From a virus, in the IMG/VR virus record IMGVR_UViG_3300045988_143938: DNA of 64,000 bases. The stretch is one strand, 5' to 3'. Made by a program: the position numbers and the translations under genes. The notes under the pieces were generated by a model. The model saw nothing but the letters and a program-made list of their open reading frames with translations. It was not told where the DNA came from and ran no database searches. Numbering within the stretch: position 1 is the first letter of the stretch; each line of letters begins with the position of its first letter. Shown one piece after another: positions 19,607-34,139 of this stretch.

Positions 19607-22600
19607 TATGCTGCCCTCCTTTCCAGTTCGATAATACGGTTCATCATTTCTTTATTGCTATCTTTCAGCTCCTTGTTCTCTCTTTCAAGAAACTCTATTC
19701 TCGTTTCGTGGTTATTGAAATCCTCTATCAAAAATCTTTGGAAATGCTTTGCCATAGACAGTACGCATGTAGTTGCAAGCACATCATAACTCATTGTGAA
19801 GAAGCCCTCATTGTCTGTGTCTGTCACCTGTGGAAGAAATGCGTTCCAATACTGGGCGCTCGTTCCTGCTCTGACCTTGTATTTTTCATCTGTCTTGAAA
19901 GTGTAATCGAAAAGGTCAGCGTTTGCCATTACGTCAAGAGGTACGATGATGCTGTTCAGGACGTTCTTCTTTCTTAAGTCGGAGTACATGGTTATTCCGC
20001 CATAGGTGAGAAGATTACCCGGGCAAATAGTATTGCCACTTCCATCCAGCAGAGTTAAAGTTCTTGTAATTGACGCAAACTTACCTGTGTATTGCCTTAC
20101 ATAGATAGGCTCTGTGCCGTCATCCGCTGTTGCAATCTCTACCCAGCCTTGATTTGACGGGCCACCGCACCTAATACGGAATAAATCATTATCTGCCATT
20201 TGCTGGTATAGCAAGTTACGCTCGCTGCCGCCTGAAAGAATTTCGAAGTAGATAGTTCCAGCTACTCCAACATCTCCGTTTACATAAAGCTTGTTACCTG
20301 ATGTCGATAAACTGCCTATGCCGACGTTGCCGCCACCAAAGCACATTGTTATACCTCTTGATGTATTATATTGGAGGTGTAATTCGCTGCCATAATTATT
20401 TATCTCACTATTTCTTTCGCTATCATTTCCGTTGTTATCTGTCTCAATGCAGATAGCGTTAAATTTAGCTCCTCCTGTTACATTGTTTGTACCGTCAAAA
20501 GGCTTGCTGAATATTGTGCGAGGAGTTTGCAGCTTAGTGGCGGACGCTACATTGTCTCCAAGTGTAGCGAGAGTCCCACTTGAGGTAGGTAGGTGTAATG
20601 TATTTTGATAATCTCCTTGCGACATTATTCTGCAAGAAAAGTCACTACTCACACCTTGCTCTTCATGGAAATCTATATACTTTCCTATTTCCAATACGCC
20701 GTCTCCTCCGATGTAACATATTGAATTCCATTGTCCTTGATTTAAATGTTTGCCGTCCAACAAATCCGCATCCAGCCCTGAACCTGAACCATCGTTGCCG
20801 GCATGCCAAACTTTATAATTATTAGACCCTAAAAGAATATTTACGTCTCCGCTTACCCAGTCTTGATTAATATCGGTTTTAGCTATTCTTAGGTTACCGT
20901 CTCCGTCTGTGAAGTTAATTCCAATTCTATTGGAATCTGCGTTATTAAAACTGATAGCAGACTTGGTTCTTGGAATAGATATAAGGTCAATGCCGGAATC
21001 TGCGTTAAATAACAGTTTTCCCGTCATCGTATCCCCTGCCTTGTTGACGTAGCGATTATCTGTATAATGAAGATAGTTAACTTCATCAAGAAGCATTCGC
21101 CAGCTTTTCTTATCATCACCCCATCCTGATCTAAATTGTATGCCATTAGGTCCATCATTAGGATCTGACGAAGAGTGAGTAGAATATAATTGGAATCTTG
21201 AAGATCCAGCTATAAAAGATGTTACTTGTCCATAACCATGTCTTTTAATAGTAACTCCGTCTGGAAAAGCATTCAAATAAGTAAATGTTCCAAGTTTTTG
21301 CCACATGAAATCATCACCATCGTCAGTTGTGTAACCAAAATATCGGAAAAATCTTCCATCAGCATCAGACTGTGTATACGCATCCGTAATCCCATATCCC
21401 CCCAGCGTAGTAGGATGAGAGGACAACTCACTGAACGAATAACTCGGCTTGTTCGGCTGCTTGGCCCAAGAATACACGTCACTTGCTGGCAATGTGGTTG
21501 GGTAATTAGGTAATGTAATAAGCTTTGTGGTTTCATCAGGAGAATAGGTTGTTCCGTTAAGGATAATCCCGTCTACCGAACCACCGCCAACACCGCCTAT
21601 TACGCTTAATACACCACCCTCTTTGGATAATGTAGTATTGTCAATCGGAAGCGCATCAAGAATGGTAGATGCCGTATGACTGCCTTGTGCAAACATGGTA
21701 AGACTACCTGTCAAAATCAAATCACCGTCTAACTCAACCACTCCGTCAGAATGCTTCTTCACAAGTATATCACCGATATTCAAGCCATTTATAAACGACT
21801 TGATACCTGTAATGTCCTGTGCACCTGATTTGGTTACGTAATCGGCTAATAGCCCGGATATGTCGTTTTTGGTGTAGGCGTCTGTGATGCCATAGCCTGC
21901 AATAGTAGTAGGCTTGTTCTGTATCTCACTGAAATCATAGGCCGGTTTGGTGGCACCTATCCATGAGGGTTTGTCCGAAACATTCTCCCAATTGGTAGGG
22001 AACACTGACGGTTTACCGCCAATTTCATCCCATGAGTAAGAGGGCTTTGTACTACCTATCCAGCTGGGTTTTCCTGATATGTTGCCCCATTCAAGCGAAG
22101 TCGGATAATTAGGCAAGGTGATTATTCCGTCCTCATTAGGAGTGTAGGTATTACCATTAACCACTATACCGTTAGCAGTACCCTTTCCACCTGTTGCGAC
22201 AAGCTTTCCGTCAACCCATTGGATTGTCACACCGTCTATTGGGAGACCTTCGTAGATTGAAGGGACTTGAACGTCTGCGCCTGAGTACATGGTTACTCCG
22301 TAGGCGGTAATCAACGGTTTGGTTAAGAACAAGTATTCCTTTCCGTTGTCGTCAACCCTCTCTTCAAGGTTTCTGTCCCAAACTACTTTGTCGAGCTTCT
22401 TTCTATATTGTTTGCTTAGTTCGCTTTGTGATGAAAACTTATTATTTACAGATGTTTCAATCTCACTAATCTGTCCTTGTATTCTTTCAAGGGTGCTTGC
22501 GCTTGGCTCATTATTAAGAGTTACTTCAAATGTCGGTATCAACCCTTCTCCCTCTTTTATAGAGAGAGACTGTATTATCACGTTCTCATGGTCTATCCCC

Positions 22601-24003
22601 ATTTCGGGATCATTCACAGTAAGCCGCTTACCTTCCATTATTTCATTATAGAAGTTAGCGTTTCTTGCCATGAAAATTTCGTCGACGCCTATATTGTAAG
22701 AGTAGTTTGTGATGCTGTATTTGGCAAGATACTCTTTAGCCCTTTCCAATAACCTGTTTTCGGCAGCACGAATATATTCTTGTGGCATAAGTATGTTCAG
22801 AAGAACAAACTTGTCCCCGGCTTTCATGTTCCAGTCCTTGTTAGGAACTGTGAAATTATCTGTATCCGCTTCTTCGAGGGTGTTTCTTCCGAGCGTAAGG
22901 GTGTAGCTGCCATCCGAAGCCTTGACTATTTTGGCAATAGCGAAGGCATACCCTTGCAATGCACCGCTCTTCATGGAAAGCTGCGCTTCTGGCATATAGC
23001 TTTCGTTTAAGTCAAATCCCAAGTCATAAAGCTGTACCGTAAAAGTGGGTTGCGTTTCACTTGTTATTGCGTCAACACTCTTTATCTCGTCAATAGCCTG
23101 TCCAGCAGAGTTCTTCATCCCCGTAATAGAGGGATAAATATCGTCATAGGTTATCACGCCTTCGCGAATCCCGTATTTGGCGATAGCCTCGTTTGACGCC
23201 AGCACAAAGTCGGTAACTCCGTCAGTCTTAAAACTTGGCAGCATAAGACGAAGAGGAGATAAGGCGTAGTTGGCGGGGAGAATACTGTCAGTCCATTCAG
23301 GCTTTTTCGGATAACTGTAATCAAGGTTTCTTGTGCCACCATAGGCTCGTAACTTAGTTACAATCCCTGTGTCCGCATCAGATATTCGTTCAATCTCATA
23401 TAACCCCTTACCTTTGCCGTATTCAAAAACATTATTCACTACCGGTTCCGCACCGCCAATGGTAACGCTTCTTCCTTTTACGAAATAATTCAGCTTGTAT
23501 TCTGTGTTTACAAGAGAAAGAGCGCTCCAGCAGTTTTGGTTACTCATGGAGATGTTCTTTTCCTCGCTGTCTACGCCATCTGCAAGGGTTATGCTCCATA
23601 CACCTTTCCCGTACATGGCGTCCAAGCATGCCTGTATTCTTTCTGCAAGATATTTGACCGTTCCTGTAAACTCAACAACCAAAGGAGTAGGGTAGACTAT
23701 TCCGTTGTCGCTGGGAACAATATTACGCATCATGCACCTTTCAAGTTCGTATTTCAGAGAAACGAAATTAAGGTCATAACTGTATTGATGCTTTGATATT
23801 TTCTTTACCGTAGGAAGAAGCTCCAGTTCAAACCGTTCTCCTCTATAATCTATGTAATCAAATACGTCAAAGTTTATTTTGGCATCAGATATAAAAGTTG
23901 ATGTGCACGCGCGTTCCGCCATGAAAACCCCGGTGTACTCCAGCTTATCCAGTACACATCTGACTGTTTGTCCGTCCTTGCTATATACCGTAAACCGTCC
24001 CAT
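19606..24003 (-). CDS. tail-associated/tail fibre protein (1465 aa) with C-terminal S74-like intramolecular chaperone
   Basis: Lies downstream of the Dit-like gene. Carries fibre repeats KPSYSWDEIGGKPS / KPAYDFSEIQNKPTTIAGYGITDAYT / KPSYSFSELSSHPTTLGGYGITDAYT. The C-terminal MYSDLRKKNV (S-D-x-R-x-K) plus a coiled-coil end is typical of peptidase S74 chaperone domains (about 19609-19983). Confidence 0.8.
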   Translation of the reverse strand: MGRFTVYSKDGQTVRCVLDKLEYTGVFMAERACTSTFISDAKINFDVFDYIDYRGERFELELLPTVKKISKHQYSYDLNFVSLKYELERCMMRNIVPSDNGIVYPTPLVVEFTGTVKYLAERIQACLDAMYGKGVWSITLADGVDSEEKNISMSNQNCWSALSLVNTEYKLNYFVKGRSVTIGGAEPVVNNVFEYGKGKGLYEIERISDADTGIVTKLRAYGGTRNLDYSYPKKPEWTDSILPANYALSPLRLMLPSFKTDGVTDFVLASNEAIAKYGIREGVITYDDIYPSITGMKNSAGQAIDEIKSVDAITSETQPTFTVQLYDLGFDLNESYMPEAQLSMKSGALQGYAFAIAKIVKASDGSYTLTLGRNTLEEADTDNFTVPNKDWNMKAGDKFVLLNILMPQEYIRAAENRLLERAKEYLAKYSITNYSYNIGVDEIFMARNANFYNEIMEGKRLTVNDPEMGIDHENVIIQSLSIKEGEGLIPTFEVTLNNEPSASTLERIQGQISEIETSVNNKFSSQSELSKQYRKKLDKVVWDRNLEERVDDNGKEYLFLTKPLITAYGVTMYSGADVQVPSIYEGLPIDGVTIQWVDGKLVATGGKGTANGIVVNGNTYTPNEDGIITLPNYPTSLEWGNISGKPSWIGSTKPSYSWDEIGGKPSVFPTNWENVSDKPSWIGATKPAYDFSEIQNKPTTIAGYGITDAYTKNDISGLLADYVTKSGAQDITGIKSFINGLNIGDILVKKHSDGVVELDGDLILTGSLTMFAQGSHTASTILDALPIDNTTLSKEGGVLSVIGGVGGGSVDGIILNGTTYSPDETTKLITLPNYPTTLPASDVYSWAKQPNKPSYSFSELSSHPTTLGGYGITDAYTQSDADGRFFRYFGYTTDDGDDFMWQKLGTFTYLNAFPDGVTIKRHGYGQVTSFIAGSSRFQLYSTHSSSDPNDGPNGIQFRSGWGDDKKSWRMLLDEVNYLHYTDNRYVNKAGDTMTGKLLFNADSGIDLISIPRTKSAISFNNADSNRIGINFTDGDGNLRIAKTDINQDWVSGDVNILLGSNNYKVWHAGNDGSGSGLDADLLDGKHLNQGQWNSICYIGGDGVLEIGKYIDFHEEQGVSSDFSCRIMSQGDYQNTLHLPTSSGTLATLGDNVASATKLQTPRTIFSKPFDGTNNVTGGAKFNAICIETDNNGNDSERNSEINNYGSELHLQYNTSRGITMCFGGGNVGIGSLSTSGNKLYVNGDVGVAGTIYFEILSGGSERNLLYQQMADNDLFRIRCGGPSNQGWVEIATADDGTEPIYVRQYTGKFASITRTLTLLDGSGNTICPGNLLTYGGITMYSDLRKKNVLNSIIVPLDVMANADLFDYTFKTDEKYKVRAGTSAQYWNAFLPQVTDTDNEGFFTMSYDVLATTCVLSMAKHFQRFLIEDFNNHETRIEFLERENKELKDSNKEMMNRIIELERRAA

Positions 24004-24473
24004 TAGATCGAAAGTGTTATTTGGGTTTGAGGGTCAGTAACCCGGAATGTAACACTGAACGTCAACACATCTCCCTCGTCAGTCTTGCGAACGAAAAGAT
24101 CCGGTTCTACGGATTTGTAGTAGACACCCTGCCTGCCTATCTTGGTGTAGGTGTCGTAAACCTTAAGCTCTGCACCGGAATTGTCTTTGCCGGAAAGGTA
24201 ATCCAAAAAGCCAATCACCTTTTCATTGGCTGTATCCATTTCTCCCTTGTATGCAAATTCCACGTCAAGTTCATAGGCTTGCATGTAAAGTCTATCAGGG
24301 ATAAATGTATCCTCTCCGTCCTCGTCTTTCCAGTCTCTCTTCGGCAATTCTTTAGTTTCTCCGTAAACAGCAAACGGAAAGTCCTTGCACACAACTCCCC
24401 ATTGGGACTTTGTATCAATAACAGGACTTCCCGGCTTACTCTTTTGAAAATAGATACTGTAAAGCTTTGCCAT
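24003..24473 (-). CDS. distal-tail (Dit)-like protein (156 aa)
   Basis: Positional call: directly upstream of the large fibre gene, overlapping it. The family was not verified. Confidence 0.45.
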   Translation of the reverse strand: MAKLYSIYFQKSKPGSPVIDTKSQWGVVCKDFPFAVYGETKELPKRDWKDEDGEDTFIPDRLYMQAYELDVEFAYKGEMDTANEKVIGFLDYLSGKDNSGAELKVYDTYTKIGRQGVYYKSVEPDLFVRKTDEGDVLTFSVTFRVTDPQTQITLSI

Positions 24474-24494
24474 GTGTTATCTTGAGTTTGTGTT

Positions 24495-24545
24495 GTAAAA
24501 AAACAAAAAGAGCCAACTAACGGGAATACCGTTAATCAGCTCTTT
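24495..24545 (-). terminator. leader terminator A (conserved with 40142..40185)
   Basis: On the minus strand, CAAGCCAAAGAGC...GGCTCTTTTTGTTTTTTT. The outer stem is 24507-13/24539-45 and the inner stem is TAACGG/CCGTTA. It lies between the -7 box at 24565-72 and the ATG at 24473. Confidence 0.6.
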
Positions 24546-24564
24546 GGCTTGTTCAATGTTGATG

Positions 24565-24572
24565 CAAATATA
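24565..24572 (-). promoter_or_regulatory. -7 box TATATTTG (minus strand)
   Basis: Exact TAnnTTTG match, flanked by the palindrome TAGAATATATTCTA at 24573-86. Confidence 0.5.
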
Positions 24573-24619
24573 TAGAATATATTCTAAATAATCAATACAA
24601 AAACATAGAAAATAGATGA
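24573..24619. promoter_or_regulatory. motif locus 1: palindrome TAGAATATATTCTA plus TAGAAAATAGATGA
   Basis: 24573-86 is a perfect 14-bp palindrome. 24606-19 is one copy of the recurring 14-mer. Confidence 0.6.
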
Positions 24620-24673
24620 TTTTTATTGCTTCTGCTTATGATTAATAGCCAATACTATCCGGCCATATAAATT

Positions 24674-24847
24674 TCATTTGCCCGGAGTAACTATTTTCAT
24701 GTATGGATTTATCATGCGTTTCCCTTTCAGCGTCTTTTCAAGCTCATCTATTCTTTCGTGTGCCATCTGTAAATCTTCGGACAGGCGCAATAATTGTCTC
24801 GCAAGGGAAACATTCTCTTTCTGCAATTCGTATATTTTTTCTTCCAT
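24674..24847 (-). CDS. small coiled-coil protein (57 aa)
   Basis: Hand-translated as MEEKIYELQKENVSLARQLLRLSEDLQMAHERIDELEKTLKGKRMINPYMKIVTPGK. Preferred over the plus-strand ORF 24678..24872. Confidence 0.45.
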   Translation of the reverse strand: MEEKIYELQKENVSLARQLLRLSEDLQMAHERIDELEKTLKGKRMINPYMKIVTPGK

Positions 24848-24936
24848 GATGAAATATTTGTTTAGATATTAATAATAGGGGTATAGTTATAGCTATCGGG
24901 CATTTGAACCGACTGCTAATTTATTAAATAGTACGA

Positions 24937-25254
24937 TTAGTATTTCCTCATGCAGCTTACGAATAAGGCTATAATAGATATAATAATACCTATGACGGAA
25001 AGTATTAAATTCCAATTAACAGGATTATGCAAGTTTGGATTAACGGCAAGGTAATGCTTTCCCTCTTCGGTGAGTTTGACGCTCCACACTTGACCGCCAA
25101 CCAAATAAGAAGCCTTTACTAACCCTTTTCTTTCAATGGAGCGAACGGATGCGGCAAATACATGCTTCGGATATGTAACAGGACATTCTCCGCCAAATTC
25201 CGAAACGATCCTAAATGCTTGCTTTTCCTCCTTTGTAAGTCTTATTCGCTCCAT
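24937..25254 (-). CDS. hypothetical protein with C-terminal TM anchor (105 aa)
   Basis: The N-terminal part may be winged-helix-like. The C-terminal WNLILSVIGIIISIIALFVSCM is hydrophobic. Confidence 0.55.
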   Translation of the reverse strand: MERIRLTKEEKQAFRIVSEFGGECPVTYPKHVFAASVRSIERKGLVKASYLVGGQVWSVKLTEEGKHYLAVNPNLHNPVNWNLILSVIGIIISIIALFVSCMRKY

Positions 25255-25314
25255 AACCTACTCGTTTTCTGCAAATTTACTAAATACTACGCAAATATGT
25301 GTTGTTGTGCTATA

Positions 25315-26136
25315 CTATTTTATAGGCGAAATCTTTCTGTCAGAAGGTTTCCCACCGAACAACTGATTGATATAAGCAAGTCCTTTGGGCTTACAAAGTA
25401 CCTTTTGATATAATATGTCGGGGTGGCTGTCTCTGTGTATAGGCGGTAACAGCGTCATTTCAAAATACCCGGCGTCAATGTACTTTTGTTTCGGTTCGTT
25501 CCTGTCTTTAAAGAATACGCCCACTTCCTTTAGCTTTTTAAAAAGGGTGTTTCTCCCGAAACCGAGGTTGAGAATCTTTGCGGCTTGGCCTATGTCTACT
25601 TTGCCCTCTGCTTTGAAAGCGGCTTCGGCAAAGTCGGCTTTGGGTTTTAGTTTGGCGTTCTTCTCTTCAAGCTGCTTCTTTTCTTGTTCTAATCTCGCCT
25701 TTTCCTCACGCTCATTTTTTAACTGTGTGGCAAGGCTGATAACAAGATCGGGGTTGTTTATCATCTGCTCCAAAGTTGGCTGCGTGGCGGTCATGCCGTA
25801 TTGGAGAAGCTCTTTGATGCGGTCATTGCACCATAAATAAAAGTCAGGAGAAAGCCATTGAGCGAAGATTAATGCCAAATCCTCATGTAACCATGTACCT
25901 TGATTGTTACCTCCTTGATTTACAGTAACTAAACCCGTTGCGGGAATTCCCGTTTTGGCTGATAATGAGCTAATTAACTCATTTGTCTGTTTTGTTGACA
26001 AAAAGTCATTACAGCGTTTTCCAAACGGTTTGGCCATTTCGGTGGCGTTCACCATTACACTATCGCCTTTCTGAAAGGTAATAGGACTTCCATTGTATTG
26101 GAAGATTTGATTTTCATTCAAGTGTCGCATAAACAA
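25315..26136 (-). CDS. antirepressor-type protein (KilA-N plus KilAC)
   Basis: N-terminus: ITFQKGDSVMVNATEMAKPFGKR...GTWLHEDLALIFAQWLSPDFYLWCNDRIKEL (KilA-N pattern). C-terminus: KPKADFAEAAFKAEGKVDIGQAAKILNLGFGRNTLFKKLKEVGVFF (KilAC pattern). Confidence 0.8.
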   Translation of the reverse strand: MFMRHLNENQIFQYNGSPITFQKGDSVMVNATEMAKPFGKRCNDFLSTKQTNELISSLSAKTGIPATGLVTVNQGGNNQGTWLHEDLALIFAQWLSPDFYLWCNDRIKELLQYGMTATQPTLEQMINNPDLVISLATQLKNEREEKARLEQEKKQLEEKNAKLKPKADFAEAAFKAEGKVDIGQAAKILNLGFGRNTLFKKLKEVGVFFKDRNEPKQKYIDAGYFEMTLLPPIHRDSHPDILYQKVLCKPKGLAYINQLFGGKPSDRKISPIK

Positions 26137-26166
26137 TGAAAATTAAAAGTTAATAATATAAGAAGA

Positions 26167-26242
26167 AAGCAGAGGCTTTCTCCAAGTTGCGACACTTCCA
26201 TATTGGCTTTGGGGCGAAATATGTACGGAGAAACCTCTGCTT
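26167..26242. other. long inverted repeat in the antirepressor leader
   Basis: AAGCAGAGGCTTTCTCC 26167-83 pairs with GGAGAAACCTCTGCTT 26227-42 (16 of 17 positions paired). A second pair, GCGACACT (about 26189-96) / AGTGTCGC (about 26305-12), lies nearby. Confidence 0.5.
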
Positions 26243-26376
26243 ATATTTTGGGCAGTAGTTCAATATAGGGCATAAAAAATCCCCAATCCAAATATGTATA
26301 TAAAAGTGTCGCACTGCAAAGATAGATATAATCTTTGAAATAGCAATGGTAGCCAAATATATTTTCAATAATTAGC

Positions 26377-26384
26377 TACCTTTG
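26377..26384 (+). promoter_or_regulatory. -7 box TAccTTTG
   Basis: TAnnTTTG match 27 nt upstream of the ATG at 26411. Confidence 0.4.
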
Positions 26385-26410
26385 CTGCGACAATTAAAAT
26401 TTATCTATAT

Positions 26411-26710
26411 ATGAAAGATGTATTTGATAGTTTCTCTATTGGAGATTTTGTATTCCAATCAGAGAATATGACCTATTCAGAATTTCTTGCTTTTTGCAAA
26501 TCTGTGTTAGACGAAATTGAAAAACTCAACTTATCAGATAACGGATTCTACAAAGAGAAGAAGAACTCTATTGTAAAACTTTACAGATTTGCAAAATCAG
26601 CAGAAGCGTACGTTCGCACAAACGGAGCTACCGCAGGCGGTAATTCAGAGACTGATCTTGTTTATTTGAAAGCAATCCTCGACGGGATAAAAAAACGTCA
26701 CAATCTCTAA
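26411..26710 (+). CDS. hypothetical protein (99 aa)
   Basis: Clean ORF with its own -7 box. The 3' end overlaps the convergent gene by 83 nt. Confidence 0.55.
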   Translation: MKDVFDSFSIGDFVFQSENMTYSEFLAFCKSVLDEIEKLNLSDNGFYKEKKNSIVKLYRFAKSAEAYVRTNGATAGGNSETDLVYLKAILDGIKKRHNL

Positions 26711-26924
26711 TGGGTTGCACAAAATCCTTTAGGCTGGCGTTCATCTTCTTAATGGCTGCCAGTCTTTTGTCTATTTCTTCTTCTTGCTCTAATCCGTTAT
26801 CTGCTCTCCACAGCTCTAAATCCGCAACTTCTGCTATAAGCATTTCAAGCTGAACAATAAACTCGTTACAATTCCTGTGTAATTGCAATTCCTTTCGTTC
26901 TCTTTTACTTATCTCATCTTTCAT
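26628..26924 (-). CDS. hypothetical coiled-coil protein (98 aa)
   Basis: The ATG at 26924 lies about 30 nt downstream of the minus-strand -7 box at 26956-63. Confidence 0.5.
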   Translation of the reverse strand: MKDEISKRERKELQLHRNCNEFIVQLEMLIAEVADLELWRADNGLEQEEEIDKRLAAIKKMNASLKDFVQPIRDCDVFLSRRGLLSNKQDQSLNYRLR

Positions 26925-26936
26925 AATTATTTCATG

Positions 26937-26977
26937 TATTTTCTATATTTTTGTGCAAATATATAGAAAATAGGTGA
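26937..26977. promoter_or_regulatory. motif locus 2: TATTTTCTATAT / ATATAGAAAATA inverted pair bracketing a -7 box, extended to TAGAAAATAGGTGA
   Basis: 26937-48 and 26961-72 form a perfect 12-bp inverted repeat. The 14-mer is at 26964-77. CAAATATA at 26956-63 is the minus-strand -7 box. Confidence 0.65.
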
Positions 26978-27082
26978 TTTTCTCAAGCGATGCGGATAAT
27001 AAAAGGGTGGATGTGTTTTATAACATACAATAGTTGTTACAATAAATCATAAATAAAATAATATTTATCAATATAAAGTTGT

Positions 27083-27090
27083 TAACTTTG
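27083..27090 (+). promoter_or_regulatory. -7 box TAacTTTG
   Basis: TAnnTTTG match 32 nt upstream of the lipoprotein ATG. Confidence 0.45.
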
Positions 27091-27121
27091 CCGCACATTA
27101 ATTAACAAAAACAAATGCTTT

Positions 27122-27505
27122 ATGAGAAAGATTTTATTTTTACTGGCAATGTTGCCAATGTTAATGTTTAGTGCATGTTCGGATGATGACGACGAAGTTA
27201 AGATTACCTCTGAGCAAGTTACAGGAAAATGGAATGTTACTTGGGTGCAAGAGGGAAGCGCAAGTTCTGATATATCCAAAGGGAATATATATATGGAACT
27301 AAGAAGCGATGGGTCTTACAAGACTGTAATATTCGGAGATTACTACATTGGAAAATGGAAACTTGAAGGGAGTACCGTTGTTGGAACTACAATAGACCCT
27401 ATTACCGAACGTTATACATTTACGTCATTTGACGGTAAGAATGCGGAAATAGACTACTCTAATAGCGAAGGTGATAAAATGAAGTTCAGAGCTACAAAAG
27501 AGTAA
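27122..27505 (+). CDS. lipocalin-like lipoprotein (moron)
   Basis: Signal peptide with lipobox MLMFSAC, an acidic linker SDDDDE, and GKWNVTW...GKWKLEG motifs typical of Bacteroides lipocalin-like domains. Confidence 0.75.
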   Translation: MRKILFLLAMLPMLMFSACSDDDDEVKITSEQVTGKWNVTWVQEGSASSDISKGNIYMELRSDGSYKTVIFGDYYIGKWKLEGSTVVGTTIDPITERYTFTSFDGKNAEIDYSNSEGDKMKFRATKE

Positions 27506-27545
27506 TACACAACTTTAAGGCTTAATATATTAGTACATCATCAGG

Positions 27546-27577
27546 TCAAGCGGAGGAAACTCCGCTTGATTTGTTTG
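27546..27577 (+). terminator. intrinsic terminator
   Basis: TCAAGCGGAG, a GAAA loop, CTCCGCTTGA, then TTTGTTTG. Confidence 0.75.
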
Positions 27578-27708
27578 TGAGAGAAAGTTATTCTGTATTA
27601 ATAAGTAATCTATTAAAAACTAAACATTTAGATTGGTGCCACTTCGTTGTATGCTATTAAACATGTATAAAAAAATAAGTGATTTATTGCAATATAAACT
27701 TTAGTCGC

Positions 27709-27809
27709 TATATTTGCATCATAATTACGCTCATGGCTACGCATACCCGAAAGCAGCTTCTTGCCGCTTATCCTTAAATAATGGGTATGCCGACCCCTGG
27801 GCATTTTTT
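27709..27809 (+). ncRNA. candidate about 90-nt small RNA (promoter-to-terminator unit)
   Basis: -7 box TAtaTTTG at 27709-16. 8-bp stem GCATACCC 27741-48 / GGGTATGC 27783-90. Terminal ATGCC/GGCAT hairpin plus T6 at 27804-09. Only 10-14-codon ORFs lie inside. Confidence 0.35.
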
Positions 27810-27942
27810 ATAAATAACCATAATGAAAAAAGACAACAACTTCTCACCTGTAAGGGTTGCCGTATTGGTAGATAGCGGTTTTTATAATTTTGATTAGGTA
27901 TTTCCAATCGAAATTTTCTCTGCTTTTCTTGCCTTACATATT

Positions 27943-28022
27943 TTCGTTCTATCTTTCTAAAATTACTATTGTTAAAAAACTGATTTATTGGTTATTTATT
28001 TGCTTGTTCGTTCTATCTTTCT
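27943..28022. repeat. direct repeat TTCGTTCTATCTTTCT x2 (27943-58, 28007-22)
   Basis: Exact 16-mers 64 bp apart. The second abuts the -7 box TAtaTTTG at 28023-30. Confidence 0.7.
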
Positions 28023-28049
28023 TATATTTGCATATCAAATAGCGCTATA

Positions 28050-28298
28050 ATGAGTAATTGGAGCGAAAAACAAGAAGCGAAGAAAGAGGGCAAGGAAAAG
28101 GATAAGGTAAGGCGTGAAAAACTTGCAGGATTCTTTTTTAATTTGGCGCAAGTTTCTTTCACTGTATTATCTTTGGGATTGGCAATAACCCTTGTGAAAG
28201 AAGAACTTTATGATAACATTTTATTAATTGTTCTTGTTTCTATGGGAATTATACTTACGGTATTATTTGCAAAAATAGGTAATAACATTTTAAGATAA
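28050..28298 (+). CDS. hypothetical 2-TM membrane protein (82 aa)
   Basis: Lys/Glu-rich N-terminus followed by two hydrophobic helices. -7 box 20 nt upstream. Confidence 0.55.
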   Translation: MSNWSEKQEAKKEGKEKDKVRREKLAGFFFNLAQVSFTVLSLGLAITLVKEELYDNILLIVLVSMGIILTVLFAKIGNNILR

Positions 28299-28303
28299 AT
28301 ATT

Positions 28304-28405
28304 ATGGTTGCATTATATGGGTTTGGGCTTATAACAGTAATAACTGTTGCCTTTTGGATTTATACAGAAACTCCCTCCGGTAAAAAGTGGATAAAAGGGC
28401 TGTGA
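28304..28405 (+). CDS. mini TM protein 1 (33 aa)
   Basis: MVALYGFGLITVITVAFWIYTETPSGKKWIKGL. First of three tandem paralogs ending in GKKW[IL]. Confidence 0.45.
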   Translation: MVALYGFGLITVITVAFWIYTETPSGKKWIKGL

Positions 28406-28409
28406 TAAT

Positions 28410-28514
28410 ATGGATGGATTGACAATATTATTTATATTTACGAGTATAATAGGGGGAGGTTTTGCACTTTGGCTTAAAACCAAGTCAGGCAAGAAGTGGT
28501 TAAGAGAACTGTAA
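28410..28514 (+). CDS. mini TM protein 2 (34 aa)
   Basis: MDGLTILFIFTSIIGGGFALWLKTKSGKKWLREL. Confidence 0.45.
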   Translation: MDGLTILFIFTSIIGGGFALWLKTKSGKKWLREL

Positions 28515-28516
28515 TT

Positions 28517-28621
28517 ATGGAAGGTTTGTTAATCGTTTTGGGAGGTTCTGGAGCTTTAGCCTTTTTATTTGCTCTTTGGCTGAATACTCGAAAAGGCAAG
28601 AAGTGGCTTGCAAGCTTATAA
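28517..28621 (+). CDS. mini TM protein 3 (34 aa)
   Basis: MEGLLIVLGGSGALAFLFALWLNTRKGKKWLASL. Confidence 0.45.
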   Translation: MEGLLIVLGGSGALAFLFALWLNTRKGKKWLASL

Positions 28622-28648
28622 ATTGACTATTATTTAGATAAAACAATA

Positions 28649-28676
28649 AAGCCAGACACTACATCTGGCTTTTTCT
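28649..28676. terminator. bidirectional terminator at the right edge of the island
   Basis: AAGCCAGA 28649-56 pairs with TCTGGCTT 28664-71 around a 7-nt loop. T-rich runs follow on both strands. Confidence 0.6.
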
Positions 28677-29165
28677 TTGCAATACATCTCCCTCGGTTTC
28701 TACTACACAGTCCTCTCCATGAATATATACATATACAGAGGCTATTCCTCTTTGAATTACGTTTACCTTTGCCCGGTCATACACATTAATGAATATCTTG
28801 CAATACTGAGAACAGTCAATAGTCACTTCGCTATCATGACGGACATACAAATCACATATAGAGAAACCGTCAAATAGGAGAGTACCTTTACAGCTTCCGT
28901 TCAGTACGGATGTGTGGCTCATATTTCGCTTTTGTATATCTTCGTCAACAAATATGTTGTTTCTGTGAAGAATATCCTTATCGAAGTTTTCCTTTATGAA
29001 ATTATTGGTAGGATACCCTTTGTCTATACAGAAATCAATCCCATGCAAATACTTGTCAATTAACGCTTGTTGATCGGGAGAACCCCATTGTTCCGTCCAT
29101 TCCGTACATAATCCCAGTGATACTGCTTGGTTGAGTAATGTTCTGCTTAAAGCCTTGTCGTTCAT
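28659..29165 (-). CDS. hypothetical protein (168 aa) related in architecture to the 56481..57497 repeat protein
   Basis: The N-terminal A-x4-C...LIDKYL...ENFDKDIL parallels ANAC...LLKAI...ENFTEEEL of the repeat protein. The C-terminus has a degenerate alternating V/I pattern. Directly downstream of the tape measure gene. Confidence 0.6.
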   Translation of the reverse strand: MNDKALSRTLLNQAVSLGLCTEWTEQWGSPDQQALIDKYLHGIDFCIDKGYPTNNFIKENFDKDILHRNNIFVDEDIQKRNMSHTSVLNGSCKGTLLFDGFSICDLYVRHDSEVTIDCSQYCKIFINVYDRAKVNVIQRGIASVYVYIHGEDCVVETEGDVLQRKSQM

Positions 29166-29169
29166 AATT

Positions 29170-32100
29170 TTATATATTAATCTTTCGTTTCCCTTTGTCT
29201 ATAACCATACCCACTAATCCCATAAACTCCTTTAACACAGCCAAGTTGGCTTCTGTGTTTTGAGCACTTCTTAGCGTATTGTTAGCTATCGCTCTTAATT
29301 GCGTTAGTTGCTGTTCTGCGAGAATATTGTACTTTGGGAAAATTTCATTTCCTAATTTTTCAAGAAGAGCACGTTTTACACTTACATCCTGTCGGATGCT
29401 ATTCAGGTATGAACCTAAAAGGTTTGCCGTATCTTCTGTTACACCTTGTATTCCTTTTGTTAATCCGGAAGTGGAAGATTCCCCGGTAGCCGTAAGCGCT
29501 CCTCCGGTAGCTTTATCAAAGGTTTCAAGGAAAGATTGTGAGGCATCTATCATGGCTTTCCCCTCATTGTCGAAAAAGTCTTTTATAGCCCCTGCTGCAA
29601 CAGCGCCATTATCTTGAATATCCGTAAACTCCTTAAACAGGCCTTTTTCTCCGAAAAGTTTATCCTGTAACTTTTCAAACATGGGCTGTATTACCAAGTT
29701 CTTTAATATGTTGTTGGCAACACTTCGCATGATGTTGTTCACTACGTTGTCAAAAGCCTGCGCTGCATCTTCTCCGTTGGCAAAGGCTTCCGTTAACGCA
29801 TCACTTATCTGACTTGCCCAATCCTGAAAATCTATTCCGTACAAATCTTTGGTAAGGTCTTCCACGAAATAGGCGATTTGCTCGTTCAGTTCCGCAAGCT
29901 GGTTCTTATAGTCTTGTATCTTTCCTGCATCAGATTTCTTTTTCCCTTCTTCGTTTCTTAATTGGCCCTCTATCTCTGCACGTTGAGAAACAAGTCCCAC
30001 GTATTGGGCCTGATATTGTTTAAGGACGCTGTTATCAAGTTCCTTTCCTACGCCAACCTTTTCCAATGCTTCCAGCGCTTCCTTGTCTACACCTATTTTA
30101 AAGTTTAATCCCATAAAACGCTGCATCCCGGCAGGAAGGCTCTCCATTGATTTTATCCGTTTTTTTAATTCTTCCACATAGTCCAAACCCTCGTCTTTTA
30201 ATACTCGGAATTGCATTTTATAGCTTTCGGTAAGCGAACTCCCGGCGCGTTTAACTTGTTCTTCCAACTGTTCATATAGCAATATGGCACGCTCTATACT
30301 TTCGTCTCCACCAAGCGATCTGTCTATGGATTTTCCTAATTGATCGTAGGCGGACTTTAATTCCTCAACTCTTTGTTTGCTACGCTGGATACTTCTTTCA
30401 AGTCTTTTGTCATGTAGTTGCGCAATGCTTCCGATAAAACCGGTTATCCCACCGACTATACCGGCGGCTCCTTGCATTATAGCCATAGGATTTCCACTGG
30501 TAATTCCGGCAAAAAGGGTTCCTCCGCTTTGAGCAATGTTTAATAGTCCTCCTCCAACACTTTGAATTGTACTTAACGCGTCGGCCATACTGTCATTTCC
30601 CAAAGTATCGAACATAGAACTTAGATTACCTAATGTTCCAATGAGTAGATCAGACATTTCTATGATCTCCCCAAGTCCTATGCGTACCTTGTCAGATGAG
30701 CCAGTTTGCTTGTCTTGTGCATCAGTAACATTTTTTTCGGCATCCGCTAAAGTCTTTAGTTTAGGTACTAATTTATCAACAACCTTAGTCCGATAAGATA
30801 AACCACTATCCGTTCTTTTTGTTTCAGTATGGCTCGTGTCTGAAACGCCAGTAATCACCTTGCCCCCGTTTTGGATAAACGCAAGTTCTTGTTGAGCTTT
30901 TTTCAACTCTTTGGTAGCTTCTACGTACTCCTTTATTCCATTTGATAACGTCTTAAAAGGATTTCTGCTCTCGCTCTCATCGCGCAGCTTCTTTAATACA
31001 TTGATAAGCTCTTTGAACTCGTTGACTTTTAGGCTTTGCCCGGTAGTGTTTTTAAAATCCTCTAAATTTTTAATTAACCTATCAAGCGTTGCGGAAGACA
31101 ATCGGTCAAGATCATCGAAGGTTTTTGCCCAATCTTCTGAACTTTTGAATTGCTCAAATTTGATTGATGCGACATCTTCGCCCGCTTTCTCTTTCCTTTG
31201 TGTTATAAGTCTATCGGTAGCTTCTTCTCCAAACTTCTTTCTTCGACTTTCAATATCCGCTAAATCTTTTTGAAGATTGCGTTCAATGTCTTCTATCTTT
31301 TGGGAATAGTCCTTATAATCTTCTATCATGCCTAAAAGATTATCAAGGCTTTCCGACCGCATTTTCTTGCCCTCCTCGCTTATTGCTTGATACAGCTTTA
31401 AAACGGCTCCTTCTCCGAATTGCTTCTTTACATCATCCTCTTTCATGGCAAGGACATCAGTAATGGAAAACTTGCTTCCTGTCTTTTTTAGGGCATCTCC
31501 AAGCTGATTGCGGAAATCTTCAACAATGCTTTCAAATGATATGTTTTCACCGAAAGCAATGTTCATGGAAAGCGCTTTGTTTCCGGTCGCTTCAAATAGC
31601 TTTTTATACAAGTCCCATTTCTCTCCGGCTTGAGAGACATATTTCTCTATTTCCTTTAAGGCGTTATCGGCTTCTTTTTTTGCGTTTTCAATCTGCTCTT
31701 TGTCTATCTTAACGCCAAGAGAAACATATAAATCTTTTTGCTTCTCCTTGCTTTGATCCAGCTGGTTTTGGATATACTTGTACGCCTTACTCGGATCGCT
31801 CAAGTCTAAATTTACCCCCTTGCTATCAAATACTGGTGCAAATTCGGGTATATTCTTTACTCTTTGGGCGGCCGATTCTTCCCCCTCTATTTTCCTCCAT
31901 TTCTCGTAGCTGGATATAGCTTTTTCTATGAGGTCGGCACGATTCTTCCATTGCTCGGCAATAGGGTCTTTGGCTGTATCTGTTGACTTTTCTCTTCCGC
32001 CTAACGTTTCGTATATTTTCCTTGTCGTATCAAGTTCTTTGTTATAGGACGCTAATTGTTTTTCTGAAAATTTATTATCCGGATTAAGGCTGTCTATTTT

Positions 32101-34131
32101 CTTTTTTAAATCACTTATATTAGTAGACAACCTGCTCATGTATTCTTCATACGATTCACTCTCTTTAGGCTTTATGACATTCAAATCTCCAGCGAGCAAG
32201 TTTGCTTCCTTTTCCCAATCAGTCAATGGTTTACTTATATCTATTTGGCTCATCGAATGATAAGACTGTCTGGCTGTATCTATAATGTTAGCCAAGTCTA
32301 AACTTTGCTTTTCAAGTTCCAACAGTCTGTTTCTTGCTTTAGTAATATCCTCCGGTTTATATTTGGCAAAGGATAGTTCTCTTCCTGTCTCGTCAAACCT
32401 TCTATATCCACCCTCTCTGATAATCCCGGCAAGCCTTTCTCTTTCAACATCTACGCTCTGCTTTTGTATTTGCGCATTTGCCATGGTGCCGATAAATTGT
32501 TTTTTGTACAATTCCTTTTGCTCTTGAGAAAGTTTTCGCATCTTCTCAACAGAAAGGGATATTGCTACTCCGTATTTGTCTGTTTGGGCTACTGCATCCT
32601 TGAAGGTGTTAGATAAGTTCTTGGTTATACGTCCTAATTCCCTGCTTTCTTCTGCGCTTTTGTTGGCTTTTTGGCTAAGGGTTTCGTATCGGTCTATAAG
32701 TCCGTCAACGGCCTTGTTCCCCTTCATCTTATCGTTCGTATCGGAAATAGTCTTATTTAAATCTGTAATAACTTCTGTTGTAGTTTTGACTTCCTCTCGA
32801 AACATAACCAATGCTCCTACTACGGTTCCGATAAGAGTTATAATCCAAATTATTGGATTCTTTTTCATTGCAGCGTTTAACGCATTTTGCACAACCAGTA
32901 ATCCCTTAGTTGCGACATTTGTCAACATAACAGCAGTTCTATACGAACCATATACAAACGCCAACATGCCAAGTATATCGGCAACGGTTTCCCAATGTTT
33001 CATCAGCTTGGTAAGTATTTCCAAACTATCAGAAAGGACGCCGCTATTACCCTCTGCAATGTCTGCCATCATTACATCCCAAGCATCTTGCAAGTTGCTC
33101 CATTTACCCGCAAGACTTTCTGCGAGAGCTTCCTGCATGTTGTAGAATTTCCCGCCTTCATTGGTTAACTCCCAAAGAACATCTTTCACCATGCCAAAGC
33201 TGACTTCTTTTCGGCTGATCTTATCGAATACGTCTCCAGCACTGACAACTTTATTTTCAAGAACGGTAAACCGTTTCGCCAGCTCATCAACTAACGGAAT
33301 GCCTGCTTCTGTGAACTGTCTAAGCTCTTGCCCGCGAAGAAACGCGGCACTACGAACTTGTCCGTATGCCAATATGATACGTCCCATATCAACACCGACA
33401 CCCGCGGAAATATCAGCAAGCCGCTTAGTCGTATCGTAAAGCTCTTCGTAGGGGATACTATATGCAGAAAGCTGTTTTGCGTATGACGCTAATTCCTTAA
33501 ACTGGAACGGGGAAGCCACCGCTAACTCCTTGATGCGGTTGAATATCGTTTCAGCTTTCATGCTATCCCCGATAATAGAGGTCAGTGCGATGCGTTGTTT
33601 TTGGAACTCCCCACCAATGGTATATAATCCCCTAACAAAACGCTCTACTGTATATATGGAATACACGTTGGCGATTTGATTTCTTAACTCTCCGGCTATT
33701 CGAGACTGGGAAGACATGGTTGTATTTGCCCGCTTCATAGCGGAATTATGCGTATCTGCGGCTTTTGCTGCTTGTAAACGGACGTTTCTAAGCTGCTCAA
33801 GGGCTTTTTGAGAGTTGGCGTAAGCGTCGGCACGCATTATTTGAGAAACACCCCTCATGGCTCTTAATTCGCTTGTATTCACACCTTGCCCTTTAAAGGT
33901 TTCTGTAAGCTTCTTGATACTCTCACTATCCACCTCAAGCTTCACCTTGTACGTCTTGTTTTTCAGCAAGGAATCTACTTTATCCTCAATCTCTTTTACA
34001 TCAACCTTCAATCCTACTTTCGCGCTGACGGTTGCGTGCATGTTGACGAGCTTTTTTTTGATAGCTTCGTATTCTTGTGGTGTATAGTCTTTCAGGTGAA
34101 TCCCAAAATTCAAATTTCCGAGGTCTGCCAT
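29170..34131 (-). CDS. tail tape measure protein (1653 aa)
   Basis: Size, position after the chaperone pair, long coiled-coil stretches, and Gly-rich hydrophobic segments (for example GIVGGITGFIGSIAQL). Confidence 0.9.
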   Translation of the reverse strand: MADLGNLNFGIHLKDYTPQEYEAIKKKLVNMHATVSAKVGLKVDVKEIEDKVDSLLKNKTYKVKLEVDSESIKKLTETFKGQGVNTSELRAMRGVSQIMRADAYANSQKALEQLRNVRLQAAKAADTHNSAMKRANTTMSSQSRIAGELRNQIANVYSIYTVERFVRGLYTIGGEFQKQRIALTSIIGDSMKAETIFNRIKELAVASPFQFKELASYAKQLSAYSIPYEELYDTTKRLADISAGVGVDMGRIILAYGQVRSAAFLRGQELRQFTEAGIPLVDELAKRFTVLENKVVSAGDVFDKISRKEVSFGMVKDVLWELTNEGGKFYNMQEALAESLAGKWSNLQDAWDVMMADIAEGNSGVLSDSLEILTKLMKHWETVADILGMLAFVYGSYRTAVMLTNVATKGLLVVQNALNAAMKKNPIIWIITLIGTVVGALVMFREEVKTTTEVITDLNKTISDTNDKMKGNKAVDGLIDRYETLSQKANKSAEESRELGRITKNLSNTFKDAVAQTDKYGVAISLSVEKMRKLSQEQKELYKKQFIGTMANAQIQKQSVDVERERLAGIIREGGYRRFDETGRELSFAKYKPEDITKARNRLLELEKQSLDLANIIDTARQSYHSMSQIDISKPLTDWEKEANLLAGDLNVIKPKESESYEEYMSRLSTNISDLKKKIDSLNPDNKFSEKQLASYNKELDTTRKIYETLGGREKSTDTAKDPIAEQWKNRADLIEKAISSYEKWRKIEGEESAAQRVKNIPEFAPVFDSKGVNLDLSDPSKAYKYIQNQLDQSKEKQKDLYVSLGVKIDKEQIENAKKEADNALKEIEKYVSQAGEKWDLYKKLFEATGNKALSMNIAFGENISFESIVEDFRNQLGDALKKTGSKFSITDVLAMKEDDVKKQFGEGAVLKLYQAISEEGKKMRSESLDNLLGMIEDYKDYSQKIEDIERNLQKDLADIESRRKKFGEEATDRLITQRKEKAGEDVASIKFEQFKSSEDWAKTFDDLDRLSSATLDRLIKNLEDFKNTTGQSLKVNEFKELINVLKKLRDESESRNPFKTLSNGIKEYVEATKELKKAQQELAFIQNGGKVITGVSDTSHTETKRTDSGLSYRTKVVDKLVPKLKTLADAEKNVTDAQDKQTGSSDKVRIGLGEIIEMSDLLIGTLGNLSSMFDTLGNDSMADALSTIQSVGGGLLNIAQSGGTLFAGITSGNPMAIMQGAAGIVGGITGFIGSIAQLHDKRLERSIQRSKQRVEELKSAYDQLGKSIDRSLGGDESIERAILLYEQLEEQVKRAGSSLTESYKMQFRVLKDEGLDYVEELKKRIKSMESLPAGMQRFMGLNFKIGVDKEALEALEKVGVGKELDNSVLKQYQAQYVGLVSQRAEIEGQLRNEEGKKKSDAGKIQDYKNQLAELNEQIAYFVEDLTKDLYGIDFQDWASQISDALTEAFANGEDAAQAFDNVVNNIMRSVANNILKNLVIQPMFEKLQDKLFGEKGLFKEFTDIQDNGAVAAGAIKDFFDNEGKAMIDASQSFLETFDKATGGALTATGESSTSGLTKGIQGVTEDTANLLGSYLNSIRQDVSVKRALLEKLGNEIFPKYNILAEQQLTQLRAIANNTLRSAQNTEANLAVLKEFMGLVGMVIDKGKRKINI

Positions 34132-34139
34132 GTCGATTG

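Follow-up and report, generated by a model that had tools for sequence, protein, structure and literature searches.

The moron concept, applied to lambdoid phages, is said to come from Hendrix and co-workers. In phage HK97 the gene gp15, beside the tape measure gene, encodes a small superinfection-exclusion membrane protein, and in P22 the immI/sieA region places sieA, mnt, arc and ant between the genes for the ejection proteins and the tailspike gene 9. Domain-shuffled phage regulators, in which Bro-N, KilA-N or Rha domains are joined to ANT, were reportedly described by Iyer, Koonin and Aravind in 2002. Here we examine a locus that invites comparison with all of these. It lies in a 64,000-nucleotide (nt) stretch of viral DNA (IMG/VR record IMGVR_UViG_3300045988_143938; hereafter the window), within which an island of 4,185 bp with genes on both strands (24474–28658) separates the tape measure and post-tape-measure genes from the next tail operon. 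The split of the tail genes by a mixed-strand island had been proposed in an initial annotation made from the sequence alone, and it holds: the tape measure and post-tape-measure genes are on one side, and genes of 156 and 1465 amino acids (aa) on the other. We consider it likely that the LoVEphage-like Bacteroidales siphophages have a lineage-wide hotspot between the tape-measure and the baseplate/fibre modules, at which autonomous accessory cassettes are swapped, and that this island is its form in the window.

Phages of the LoVEphage type rank with the most prevalent temperate phages in the human gut. LoVEphage itself was detected in ~8% of viromes, and induction has released it from B. thetaiotaomicron, P. 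dorei and P. vulgatus (PMC12629997); the paper that first described it emphasised conserved synteny and makes no mention of a variable slot (PMC8525569). The window is most of the genome of a temperate Bacteroidales siphophage, with a large terminase, a portal, a major capsid protein and two tyrosine integrases, and with its tail genes on the minus strand. Among GenBank phages, the best protein matches come from LoVEphage (MW660583), Bacteroides phage BI-TP1 and Phocaeicola phage PV4-TP1, with ~49–52% identity over both genes that flank the island; relatives in IMG/VR are far closer (up to 98% identity). The upstream anchor of the hotspot is the 168-aa post-tape-measure gene (28659–29165, minus strand; phrog_10156, E 1e-33), which adjoins the tape measure gene (29170–34131, minus strand; phrog_9959, E 2e-110) in all relatives and outgroups. 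The downstream anchor is the 156-aa gene that opens the next tail operon (24003–24473, minus strand); its homologues border the island in all relatives, and in the window the 1465-aa tail/fibre gene follows it (19606–24003, minus strand). The initial annotation had called the 156-aa gene Dit-like. Its position agrees with that name, but sequence searches of Pfam, PHROG and PDB gave no match for the protein, and BLASTP showed no similarity to the Dit proteins of the outgroups, so that the name is used below as a label by position only. The PDB sequence search was equally uninformative for the 168-aa post-tape-measure protein.

The post-tape-measure protein retrieved 80 IMG/VR loci, 69 of which hold both anchors; together with the three GenBank phages they make 72 relatives and, once the window is added, the 73 islands counted throughout (L-numbers denote loci of relatives or other phages compared with the window). 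All 72 relatives carry an island at the same junction, with lengths from 2,275 to 9,637 bp. In three other contigs no anchor is reached within 10 kb, and their islands may accordingly be larger. The islands of LoVEphage, BI-TP1 and PV4-TP1 span 3.3–4.2 kb and contain KilA/Rha-type regulators and variable genes, among them a DUF4065 pair in BI-TP1 and IS256 in PV4-TP1. A profile query (a single-sequence scan gave none) also found eight prophages in Bacteroides/Phocaeicola genome assemblies with islands of 2.5–4.6 kb at the junction. Five are in metagenome-assembled genomes and three in the cultured strains B. oleiciplenus YIT 12058, B. intestinalis AF14-32 and B. acidifaciens DSM 15896. The window's own sub-lineage, represented by its 96–98% relatives, was not found in species-representative genomes. 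Conserved flanks that enclose variable content, the signature of a hotspot, are therefore seen in 72 relatives and 8 assembly prophages over a size range of 2.3–9.6 kb.

The outgroups show the junction in its closed form. In Bacteroides phage Versailles (35% identity) and Porphyromonas phage005b (30%) the genes for the tape measure, the post-tape-measure protein, the distal tail protein and Tal abut with no gap. Homology to the outgroups ends exactly at the post-tape-measure gene (window 24003–24473 vs L098 7506–8690 and L099 7529–8761); the baseplate genes downstream are unrelated in sequence to those of the outgroups, so that two tail sub-modules meet in a mosaic joint at the island. A different arrangement is found in Dulem virus 40 (PP511379.1, 48%). 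There, an integrase and a tRNA-like att (attachment) region follow the post-tape-measure gene (L101 8492–11281), and the operon of the 156-aa and tail genes stands ~35 kb away, behind the replication genes (L102 6001–6468). The tail module of this virus is physically split, and the downstream tail operon is thus a unit in its own right. The small open reading frames (ORFs) that follow its post-tape-measure gene are not homologues of the small membrane-protein genes tm82 and mini described below. Islands throughout the LoVEphage-like lineage and contiguous tail genes in the outgroups together indicate that the junction is a module boundary that was opened in the LoVEphage-like lineage.

The synteny comparison that the initial annotation had called for thus gave contiguous tail genes in outgroups and, in every LoVEphage-like relative, an island of differing content. 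The annotation's view of an accessory island at an unusual site is right as to the variable, autonomous cassettes, and has to be revised as to their history: the site is an old, lineage-wide exchange hotspot, not the scar of one insertion. A single recent moron insertion peculiar to the window phage would fit the contiguous tail genes of the outgroups and the low GC content of the island (35.6%, against 40.9% and 42.7% in the flanks), a base composition unlike that of its neighbours as expected of a moron. It is nevertheless very improbable, as every in-group relative, down to 49% aa identity of the flanks, has an island, and as these islands have edge modules and a conserved restart leader in common.

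Within the hotspot, content is arranged as widely shared blocks that alternate with rare ones. When the window island was compared by BLASTN with the 72 other islands, the promoter and leader at which the downstream tail operon restarts (24474–24624) were found in 68 relatives, the small gene tm105 (24879–25300) in ~58, the ANT half of a KilA-N/ANT regulator gene, here KilA (25312–25684), in ~40, a palindrome with divergent promoters and a lipoprotein signal peptide (26925–27192) in 45–53, a terminator (27536–27576) in 17, the promoter and N-terminus of tm82 (27969–28147) in ~48, and the last mini gene with its terminator (28511–28658) in ~40. The rare segments are the KilA-N half of KilA (25684–26130; 7–10 relatives), the gene pair p99/cc98 (26374–26924; 5 relatives) and the mature part of the lipoprotein lipo127 (27192–27535; 5 relatives). 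Absence or replacement in close relatives, which is typical of morons, is evident for 25684–26925 and 27192–27535, common to only 5–10 of the 72, and relatives whose flanks are 96–100% identical (aa) to those of the window carry different cargo. The closest comparisons resolve the joints. Three loci (L012, L016 and L020) match the window at 100% over 24474–28499 but have two mini genes; L009 matches at 100% over 27918–28658 and has three minis with a different middle. The window island joins an L012-type left and middle to an L009-type right end. The two-mini form is what a deletion between the C-terminal motif codons, repeated in mini2 and mini3 at a distance of 107 bp, would leave. From these patterns we infer that cassettes are exchanged by homologous recombination at conserved regulatory and motif-coding blocks. 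The edges at which swapping would occur are the palindromic operator with its divergent promoters, the signal-peptide coding region, the terminators, the C-terminal motif of the minis and the KilA/ANT linker.

A census of the 73 islands shows cargo typical of exclusion or lysogenic conversion. At least one lipoprotein or secreted ORF is present in 62 of them, and all 107 such ORFs, which form 15 families, are antisense to the tail genes; an acidic run follows the Cys in 64 of the 107. Annotated members of this cargo include Big_2 repeats, BACON+Big_2, BACON with BspA-type leucine-rich repeats (LRR), and an outer-membrane-protein (OMP) beta-barrel. Defence- or toxin–antitoxin-like genes are carried by 26 of the 73 islands: PD-Lambda-1 (DUF4041+T5orf172) at six loci in relatives (PADLOC E 1e-155), a GajB-like UvrD helicase in relatives' islands (E 6e-71), and DUF3800/PDC-M04A, NYN, M78 peptidase+DUF4411, helix-turn-helix (HTH)+M78, GNAT and the DUF4065 pair. 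Known defence systems, which antiviral hotspots hold among their variable content, are hence found in the relatives and not in the window copy. A further pair recurs in nine islands (L039, L055–L057, L062, L063, L068, L070 and L073) and couples a 273-aa protein, for which no family matched, with a metallo-beta-lactamase-like one of 329 aa that has weak PADLOC matches to LmuA/RTasMBL; it is possibly an uncharacterised defence pair. On the hotspot reading, the antisense cassettes would be transcribed from the prophage by host RNA polymerase, and their products would act at the cell envelope or against incoming phages, most likely in lysogenic conversion and superinfection exclusion.

The initial annotation had listed a candidate small RNA (sRNA), at 27709–27812 on the plus strand. 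We reject it, as the region is the promoter and 5′ leader of an NYN-domain gene that is intact in four relatives, and it has no Rfam match. In the window the TAnnTTTG promoter box (27709–27716) is followed by a leader hairpin with a U-run (27787–27812) and by an ORF (27823–27897) of which 24 codons are left (MKKDNNFSPVRVAVLVDSGFYNFD, then stop), so that the leader and remnant span 27709–27897. In L004, L007, L024 and L025 these 350 nt lead into an intact gene of 230 aa (Pfam NYN, E 4e-9; phrog_5783, E 1.5e-83), and homology with the window stops at 27886, which truncates the gene after ~21 codons. The remnant is a case of cargo decay.

Decay of this kind raises the alternative of a neutral recombination joint, which would serve the exchange of the Dit/Tal/fibre host-range module and carry the island genes along as hitch-hiking or decaying passengers with no selected function. 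The NYN remnant and the IS256 at the PV4-TP1 site agree with it, and so do a Dit-like gene unlike the outgroup Dit and mosaic flanks: L024 has 86% identity in the post-tape-measure protein, 69% in Dit and 89% in the Tal N-terminus, and L026 has 86%, 77% and 47%. We regard this alternative as unlikely. Cargo ORFs are intact and have promoters and terminators, the export motifs of the lipoproteins are invariant, validated defence families recur, the strand bias of the lipoprotein ORFs is strict (107/107 antisense), and the mini family keeps its length and motif across 153 clusters.

Autonomy of the cassettes is indicated by their predicted promoters and terminators. The motif TAnnTTTG, the Bacteroides −7 promoter box, occurs at 14 sites in the island (3.35 per kb), compared with 0.52 per kb in the 11.5-kb late operon (28659–40118). 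Composition-matched shuffles of the island contain 5.1 +/- 2.2 sites, and 0 of 500 reach 14. Across the whole window the motif is not enriched (77 vs 68.8 expected), so that it is informative only as local density and by its positions. A sigma-70 promoter scan showed no enrichment either (22 vs 20.6 expected), with a consensus that does not fit Bacteroides. Correctly oriented boxes stand 18–32 nt upstream of the start codons of tm105, p99, cc98, lipo127 and tm82, and 92–187 nt upstream of those of the Dit-like gene, KilA and the NYN remnant, the genes with leaders. The claim that each gene has its own box is therefore true of these genes, and fails for cc57 and the mini ORFs, which have none. 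Intrinsic terminators complete the picture. A hairpin with T-runs on both sides at 28648–28672 (z-scores −3.2 and −3.9) is the bidirectional terminator that had been noted at the end of the post-tape-measure gene, and it appears to end both the tape measure/post-tape-measure unit and the convergent tm82–mini operon. Together with the hairpin at 27542–27573 and the boxes before five genes, it supplies the predicted promoters and terminators that morons are known to own. An Rfam scan of 24000–29200 at E<=1 returned no match. In this arrangement the upstream late unit stops at the bidirectional terminator and the downstream tail operon has a second copy of the late-operon leader; the cassettes between them are autonomous, each with a TAnnTTTG box and usually a terminator, with conserved edges and differing interiors among relatives.

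How the tail operon resumes beyond the island is suggested by its leader. The predicted restart signal of the Dit/fibre operon (24497–24619, minus strand) comprises a 15-mer (24605–24619), a box (24565–24572) and a hairpin with a U-run (24507–24545), which agrees with the earlier proposal of a promoter and leader terminator of its own. The hairpin has 17 bp (free energy, dG, −25.5 kcal/mol; z −5.9), is followed by UUUUUGUUUUUUU and is only 34 nt away from the start of the 156-aa gene; a GC-containing hairpin with a U-run between promoter and ORF is the form of an intrinsic terminator in a leader. The string AAGAGC-N-GCTCTTTTT occurs exactly twice in the 64 kb, at 24505–24544 and 40145–40184, against 0.01 expected. 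The second copy (40145–40184, minus strand; dG −23.1, z −6.0) precedes the first gene of the head/tail operon, and both share the flanks CAAGCC (5′) and ACAACACAA (3′). All 19 distinct relative sequences, including LoVEphage, conserve the Dit leader; in LoVEphage the inner stem differs and still pairs, and 5 of 16 pairs show compensatory changes. The Dit/fibre operon would be turned on together with the head operon, as transcription reads through the leader hairpin that both have, in an antitermination-like manner. No antiterminator was recognised among the 10 early-region ORFs scanned; that scan gave only a sigma-70 region-4-like HTH protein (5912–6310). Alternatively, the invariant outer arms of the hairpin may form a DNA site. 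In the head-operon leader, a 59-aa zinc-ribbon ORF of CxxC...CxxC type (40210–40388, minus strand) lies between the box (40406–40415) and the hairpin; it has no family match beyond weak PHROG ones.

The 15-mer in this leader, ATAGAAAATAGRTGA, is present in 7 copies in the window against 0.67 expected. Apart from the site upstream of the Dit promoter (24605–24619), it forms an inverted pair at 26932/26963 around the boxes of cc98 and the lipoprotein and another at 40416/40468 (40416–40482) at the head/terminase promoters, and it occurs in the early region at 48408–48422 and 54143–54157. By its placement it looks like the operator of a phage regulator, and we treat it as a putative one. As it is common to the cc98/lipoprotein promoters and to early and late phage promoters, those cassettes may be under phage control and possibly repressed in lysogens, in place of being expressed constitutively.

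Adjacent to the restart signal is a block of three genes in the orientation of the tail genes, directly upstream of the Dit promoter. The first, KilA (25315–26130, minus strand), is an antirepressor-type gene whose two domains both score above the Pfam gathering thresholds, in agreement with the earlier assignment: KilA-N with E 1e-21 and 77.3 bits (cutoff 23.8), and ANT (KilAC, PF03374) with E 3e-19 and 69.8 bits (cutoff 25.3). Its box (26317–26324) is followed by a 187-nt leader with a hairpin at 26162–26183. The breakpoint in this gene, at 25684 (~residue 149), falls in the linker between the two domains, and relatives combine Bro-N-, Rha- or KilA-N-like N-termini with at least 3 ANT-type C-termini, as judged by eye from the sequences. 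Around the KilA start and leader, TGCGACAC is found three times within 190 nt (26122–26313), in both orientations, with a near-copy at 26386; over the whole window it is only marginally above chance (4 vs 1.05 expected). The second gene, tm105 (24937–25254, minus strand; promoter-like box 25272–25279), encodes the 105-aa protein that had been noted as a membrane-anchored small protein. Its AlphaFold2 (AF2) model agrees, with a winged helix (H-H-E-E-H) at the N-terminus and a C-terminal transmembrane helix (predicted local distance difference test, pLDDT, 79), and the best fold matches are of the MarR family (E ~1e-2). In another phage group, homologues of tm105 are the last genes of early operons. 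The third, cc57 (24674–24847, minus strand), is a 57-aa coiled-coil-like protein with weak coiled-coil Pfam matches only. It has no box of its own, and a joint transcript with tm105 is probable.

KilA, tm105 and cc57 are present in 70, 60 and 45 of the 73 islands, respectively. Their semi-conservation and co-orientation with the late genes suggest that they may be regulatory, and on the hotspot reading they would be a semi-core regulatory set and not cargo. A stronger version of this idea is that much of the island is core regulation: the three genes would be a secondary immunity or late-control region akin to P22 immI, transcribed toward the Dit operon and with the 15-mer palindrome as its operator, and the antisense genes would be the sole true morons. 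The counts and orientation above agree with this version, as do the 15-mer common to head/terminase and early promoters and the two further ANT-domain paralogues in the window. L021 has none of the three genes, on the other hand, and other islands are missing one or two; the KilA-N half is swapped between near-identical phages, tm105 homologues are in early operons of other phages, and no Arc/Mnt-like small repressor was found, as p99, cc98, cc57 and tm105 gave no ribbon-helix-helix (RHH) or other repressor family in Pfam or PHROG. We therefore hold core regulation of this extent to be possible though doubtful, both for the gene block and for its operator.

Several points weigh against reading the island as an exchange hotspot of independently expressed accessory genes. 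The frequency and orientation of the KilA–tm105–cc57 block mean that part of the island may be core. The chief reservation about independent expression of the cassettes is that the 15-mer of the cc98/lipoprotein promoters recurs at phage promoters, both early and late. The promoter boxes and hairpins are predicted from sequence. The relatives are for the most part metagenomic contigs of one IMG/VR study (3300045988), so that the sampling is not independent. Finally, a PADLOC search with KilA, lipo127, tm82, tm105, p99, cc98, cc57 and one mini gave no known defence family and only a weak PDC-S22 match for KilA.

The lipoprotein cassette is the clearest of the antisense units. It occupies 27083–27573 on the plus strand, with a box at 27083–27090, a 127-aa gene (lipo127; 27122–27505) and a terminator hairpin at ~27542–27573 (z −4.7). 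The N-terminus, MRKILFLLAMLPMLMFSAC-SDDDDE, combines a signal peptide, a lipobox Cys and an acidic run straight after it (...FSAC-SDDDDE), which are the three elements looked for in an export signal of surface lipoproteins; an acidic SDDDD-type run behind the lipobox Cys is a known surface-export motif of Bacteroidota lipoproteins. Among 21 homologues Cys19 and Ser20 are invariant, and Asp22 and Asp23 nearly so. The AF2 model is an all-beta barrel (pLDDT 86.5), whose best PDB match is the B. ovatus lipocalin BACOVA_00364 (TM score 0.51, E 3e-3). Several homologues carry a precomputed PF13648 (Lipocalin_4) assignment, while lipo127 itself has only sub-threshold Pfam matches. The lipobox, the modelled barrel and the hairpin agree with the earlier description of a lipocalin-like lipoprotein with its own terminator, and the protein is predicted to be surface-targeted. 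Its mature part is common to only 5 relatives, whereas its promoter and signal peptide are common to 45–53.

An operator-like inverted repeat of 22 nt (26932–26977) encloses two divergent TAnnTTTG boxes (26946–26953, plus; 26956–26963, minus). This repeat block, kept in 45–53 of the 72 relatives, is the best-conserved cassette boundary. The minus-strand box serves cc98 (26628–26924, minus strand), which is convergent with p99 (26411–26710, plus strand; 99 aa; box 26377–26384), an island member that the initial annotation had left out of its gene list. The two genes overlap at their 3′ ends and always co-occur, in 7 islands; the divergent relative L043 keeps both at the protein level (43% for p99 and 60% for cc98). 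Neither protein has a Pfam, PHROG or PADLOC match.

At the right end of the island is an operon of small membrane proteins. Its first gene, tm82 (28050–28298, plus strand; box 28023–28030), encodes an 82-aa protein with two transmembrane segments, as had been annotated; it matches phrog_23063 (E 2e-27) and has no Pfam match itself, and many of its homologues carry a precomputed PF20482 (DUF6722) assignment. The homologue P0135 reaches 25.8 bits against the DUF6722 hidden Markov model (cutoff 27). Behind tm82 follow three single-transmembrane genes of 33/34 aa on the plus strand, mini1 (28304–28405), mini2 (28410–28514) and mini3 (28517–28621). These mini ORFs, listed already in the initial annotation, belong to a real family with a fixed length of 34 aa and a shared C-terminal motif: W-L-x-T-x-x-G-K-K-W-L-x-x-L is invariant behind a variable hydrophobic helix, and 14 fixed-length variants occur in 58 of the 73 islands, with 1–3 copies each. 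A profile of the three sequences, searched against 1.84 billion proteins, returned 153 cluster representatives (E<=1e-3), most of exactly 34 aa, which sets the family at no fewer than 153 clusters at 50% identity. The peptides match no Pfam or PHROG family.

The tm82–mini operon is found in 54–58 of the 73 islands and is absent from the LoVEphage species itself. Outside the islands, homologues of tm82 are always followed by 34-aa ORFs, in other mobile elements (L085 5071–5426; L084 3178–3530; L086–L093). The unrelated phage BS-TP3 has an 80-aa DUF6722 protein and one or two 34-aa ORFs beside its integrase, prophages of the Versailles type hold the module between the integrase and a cI-like repressor, and it is also seen at the edge of a non-phage-like element that encodes a 5,418-aa polyvalent protein. 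The usual neighbour of the module is an integrase or a repressor. By this distribution DUF6722 and the 34-aa peptides appear to be a membrane module that is mobile and associated with lysogeny. Being small membrane proteins whose ends are charged, kept in most islands, they could also be phage lysis genes of the holin/antiholin kind. This is improbable for tm82 and its peptides, given that members of the LoVEphage species lack them, that BS-TP3 has a separate annotated holin/endolysin pair with the module beside the integrase, that its placement in Versailles-like prophages is between integrase and cI-like repressor, that a non-phage-like element has it at its edge, and that no endolysin is adjacent in the window. 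We infer from context and architecture that the tm82–mini operon may have a role in exclusion at the inner membrane. The DUF6722/peptide system could bring about superinfection exclusion at DNA entry or another envelope-level competition between elements, and the diversified peptides, with their hypervariable helix and 1–3 copies per locus, could set its specificity.

Elsewhere in the window, the two tyrosine integrase genes (52472–53605 and 50985–51875) are on opposite strands, ~600 bp apart, and 48.2–49.3 kb is a very AT-rich, repeat-like non-coding stretch. A tRNA/tmRNA scan of the window found none. The two ANT-domain paralogues of the island gene are at 7159–8082 and 61572–62405 (AntA+ANT; KilA-N+ANT). 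The large terminase ORF (40479–43265) is 928 aa long and has a LAGLIDADG_3 domain at residues ~320–373, ahead of Terminase_6N, which suggests an intein or homing-endonuclease insertion; as the annotated ATG is upstream of the promoter box at 40490, the true start may be further downstream.

The exchange site loads prophages with surface lipoproteins, with adhesin-like BACON/Big_2/LRR proteins and with anti-phage systems, and a defined site of this sort would be a concrete route to strain-level differences in phage susceptibility and surface properties of gut Bacteroides. The junction is also a natural, tolerated insertion site for engineering LoVEphage-like phages. Moreover, the hotspot points to two testable items, the DUF6722/34-aa peptide module and the shared late-operon leader. 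Whether these amount to new biology is a tentative matter: it is conceivable, with the odds against it, that DUF6722 and the peptides are an undescribed two-component membrane system of Bacteroidales mobile elements and that the late-operon hairpin is the target of late-gene antitermination in Bacteroides phages.

Comparison with described systems provides insights on what is shared and what is particular to this locus. As in the antiviral hotspots of P2 and P4 prophages (Rousset et al. 2022, PMC9122126), a slot enclosed by conserved core genes varies in content from one close relative to the next, and known defence systems are in the slot, here in the relatives (PD-Lambda-1, the GajB-like helicase and DUF3800). 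Unlike those hotspots, the slot is inside the tail-gene cluster, its cargo is mainly Bacteroidales surface lipoproteins and small membrane proteins, and the cassette edges are shared regulatory DNA that includes a segment coding for a signal peptide; the window copy has no recognised defence gene, and the locus is known from sequence alone. The likeness to lambdoid morons is in the extra genes within a late/tail region, which differ from it in base composition and each bring a promoter and a terminator. The difference is one of scale and consequence, as this is a multi-cassette, mixed-strand zone of 2–10 kb with TAnnTTTG promoters, at which the late operon is interrupted and restarted.

The resemblance to P22 immI is one of layout: an ANT-domain antirepressor (the PF03374 match above) and exclusion-type membrane proteins are placed between the DNA-delivery/tail genes and the receptor-binding genes, and transcription runs on toward the downstream tail gene. 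Arc/Mnt-type repressors were not detected, however, nor was any sequence homology to SieA, and the N-terminal domain of the antirepressor is shuffled among relatives. That shuffling is of the kind described for Bro-N/KilA-N/Rha+ANT regulators, since the island gene is KilA-N+ANT and its N- and C-termini are recombined among relatives (by eye); it differs from the known cases in taking place between near-identical phages, at a fixed locus and with the breakpoint in the linker. Finally, the leaders recall lambda Q and its PR′–tR′ region. No Q-like or NusG-like factor was found among the 10 early-region ORFs scanned in the window, which sets the phage apart from lambda, whereas the strong hairpin with its U-run between promoter and late operon, placed before both late operons and covarying, is the feature in which the two systems are alike.

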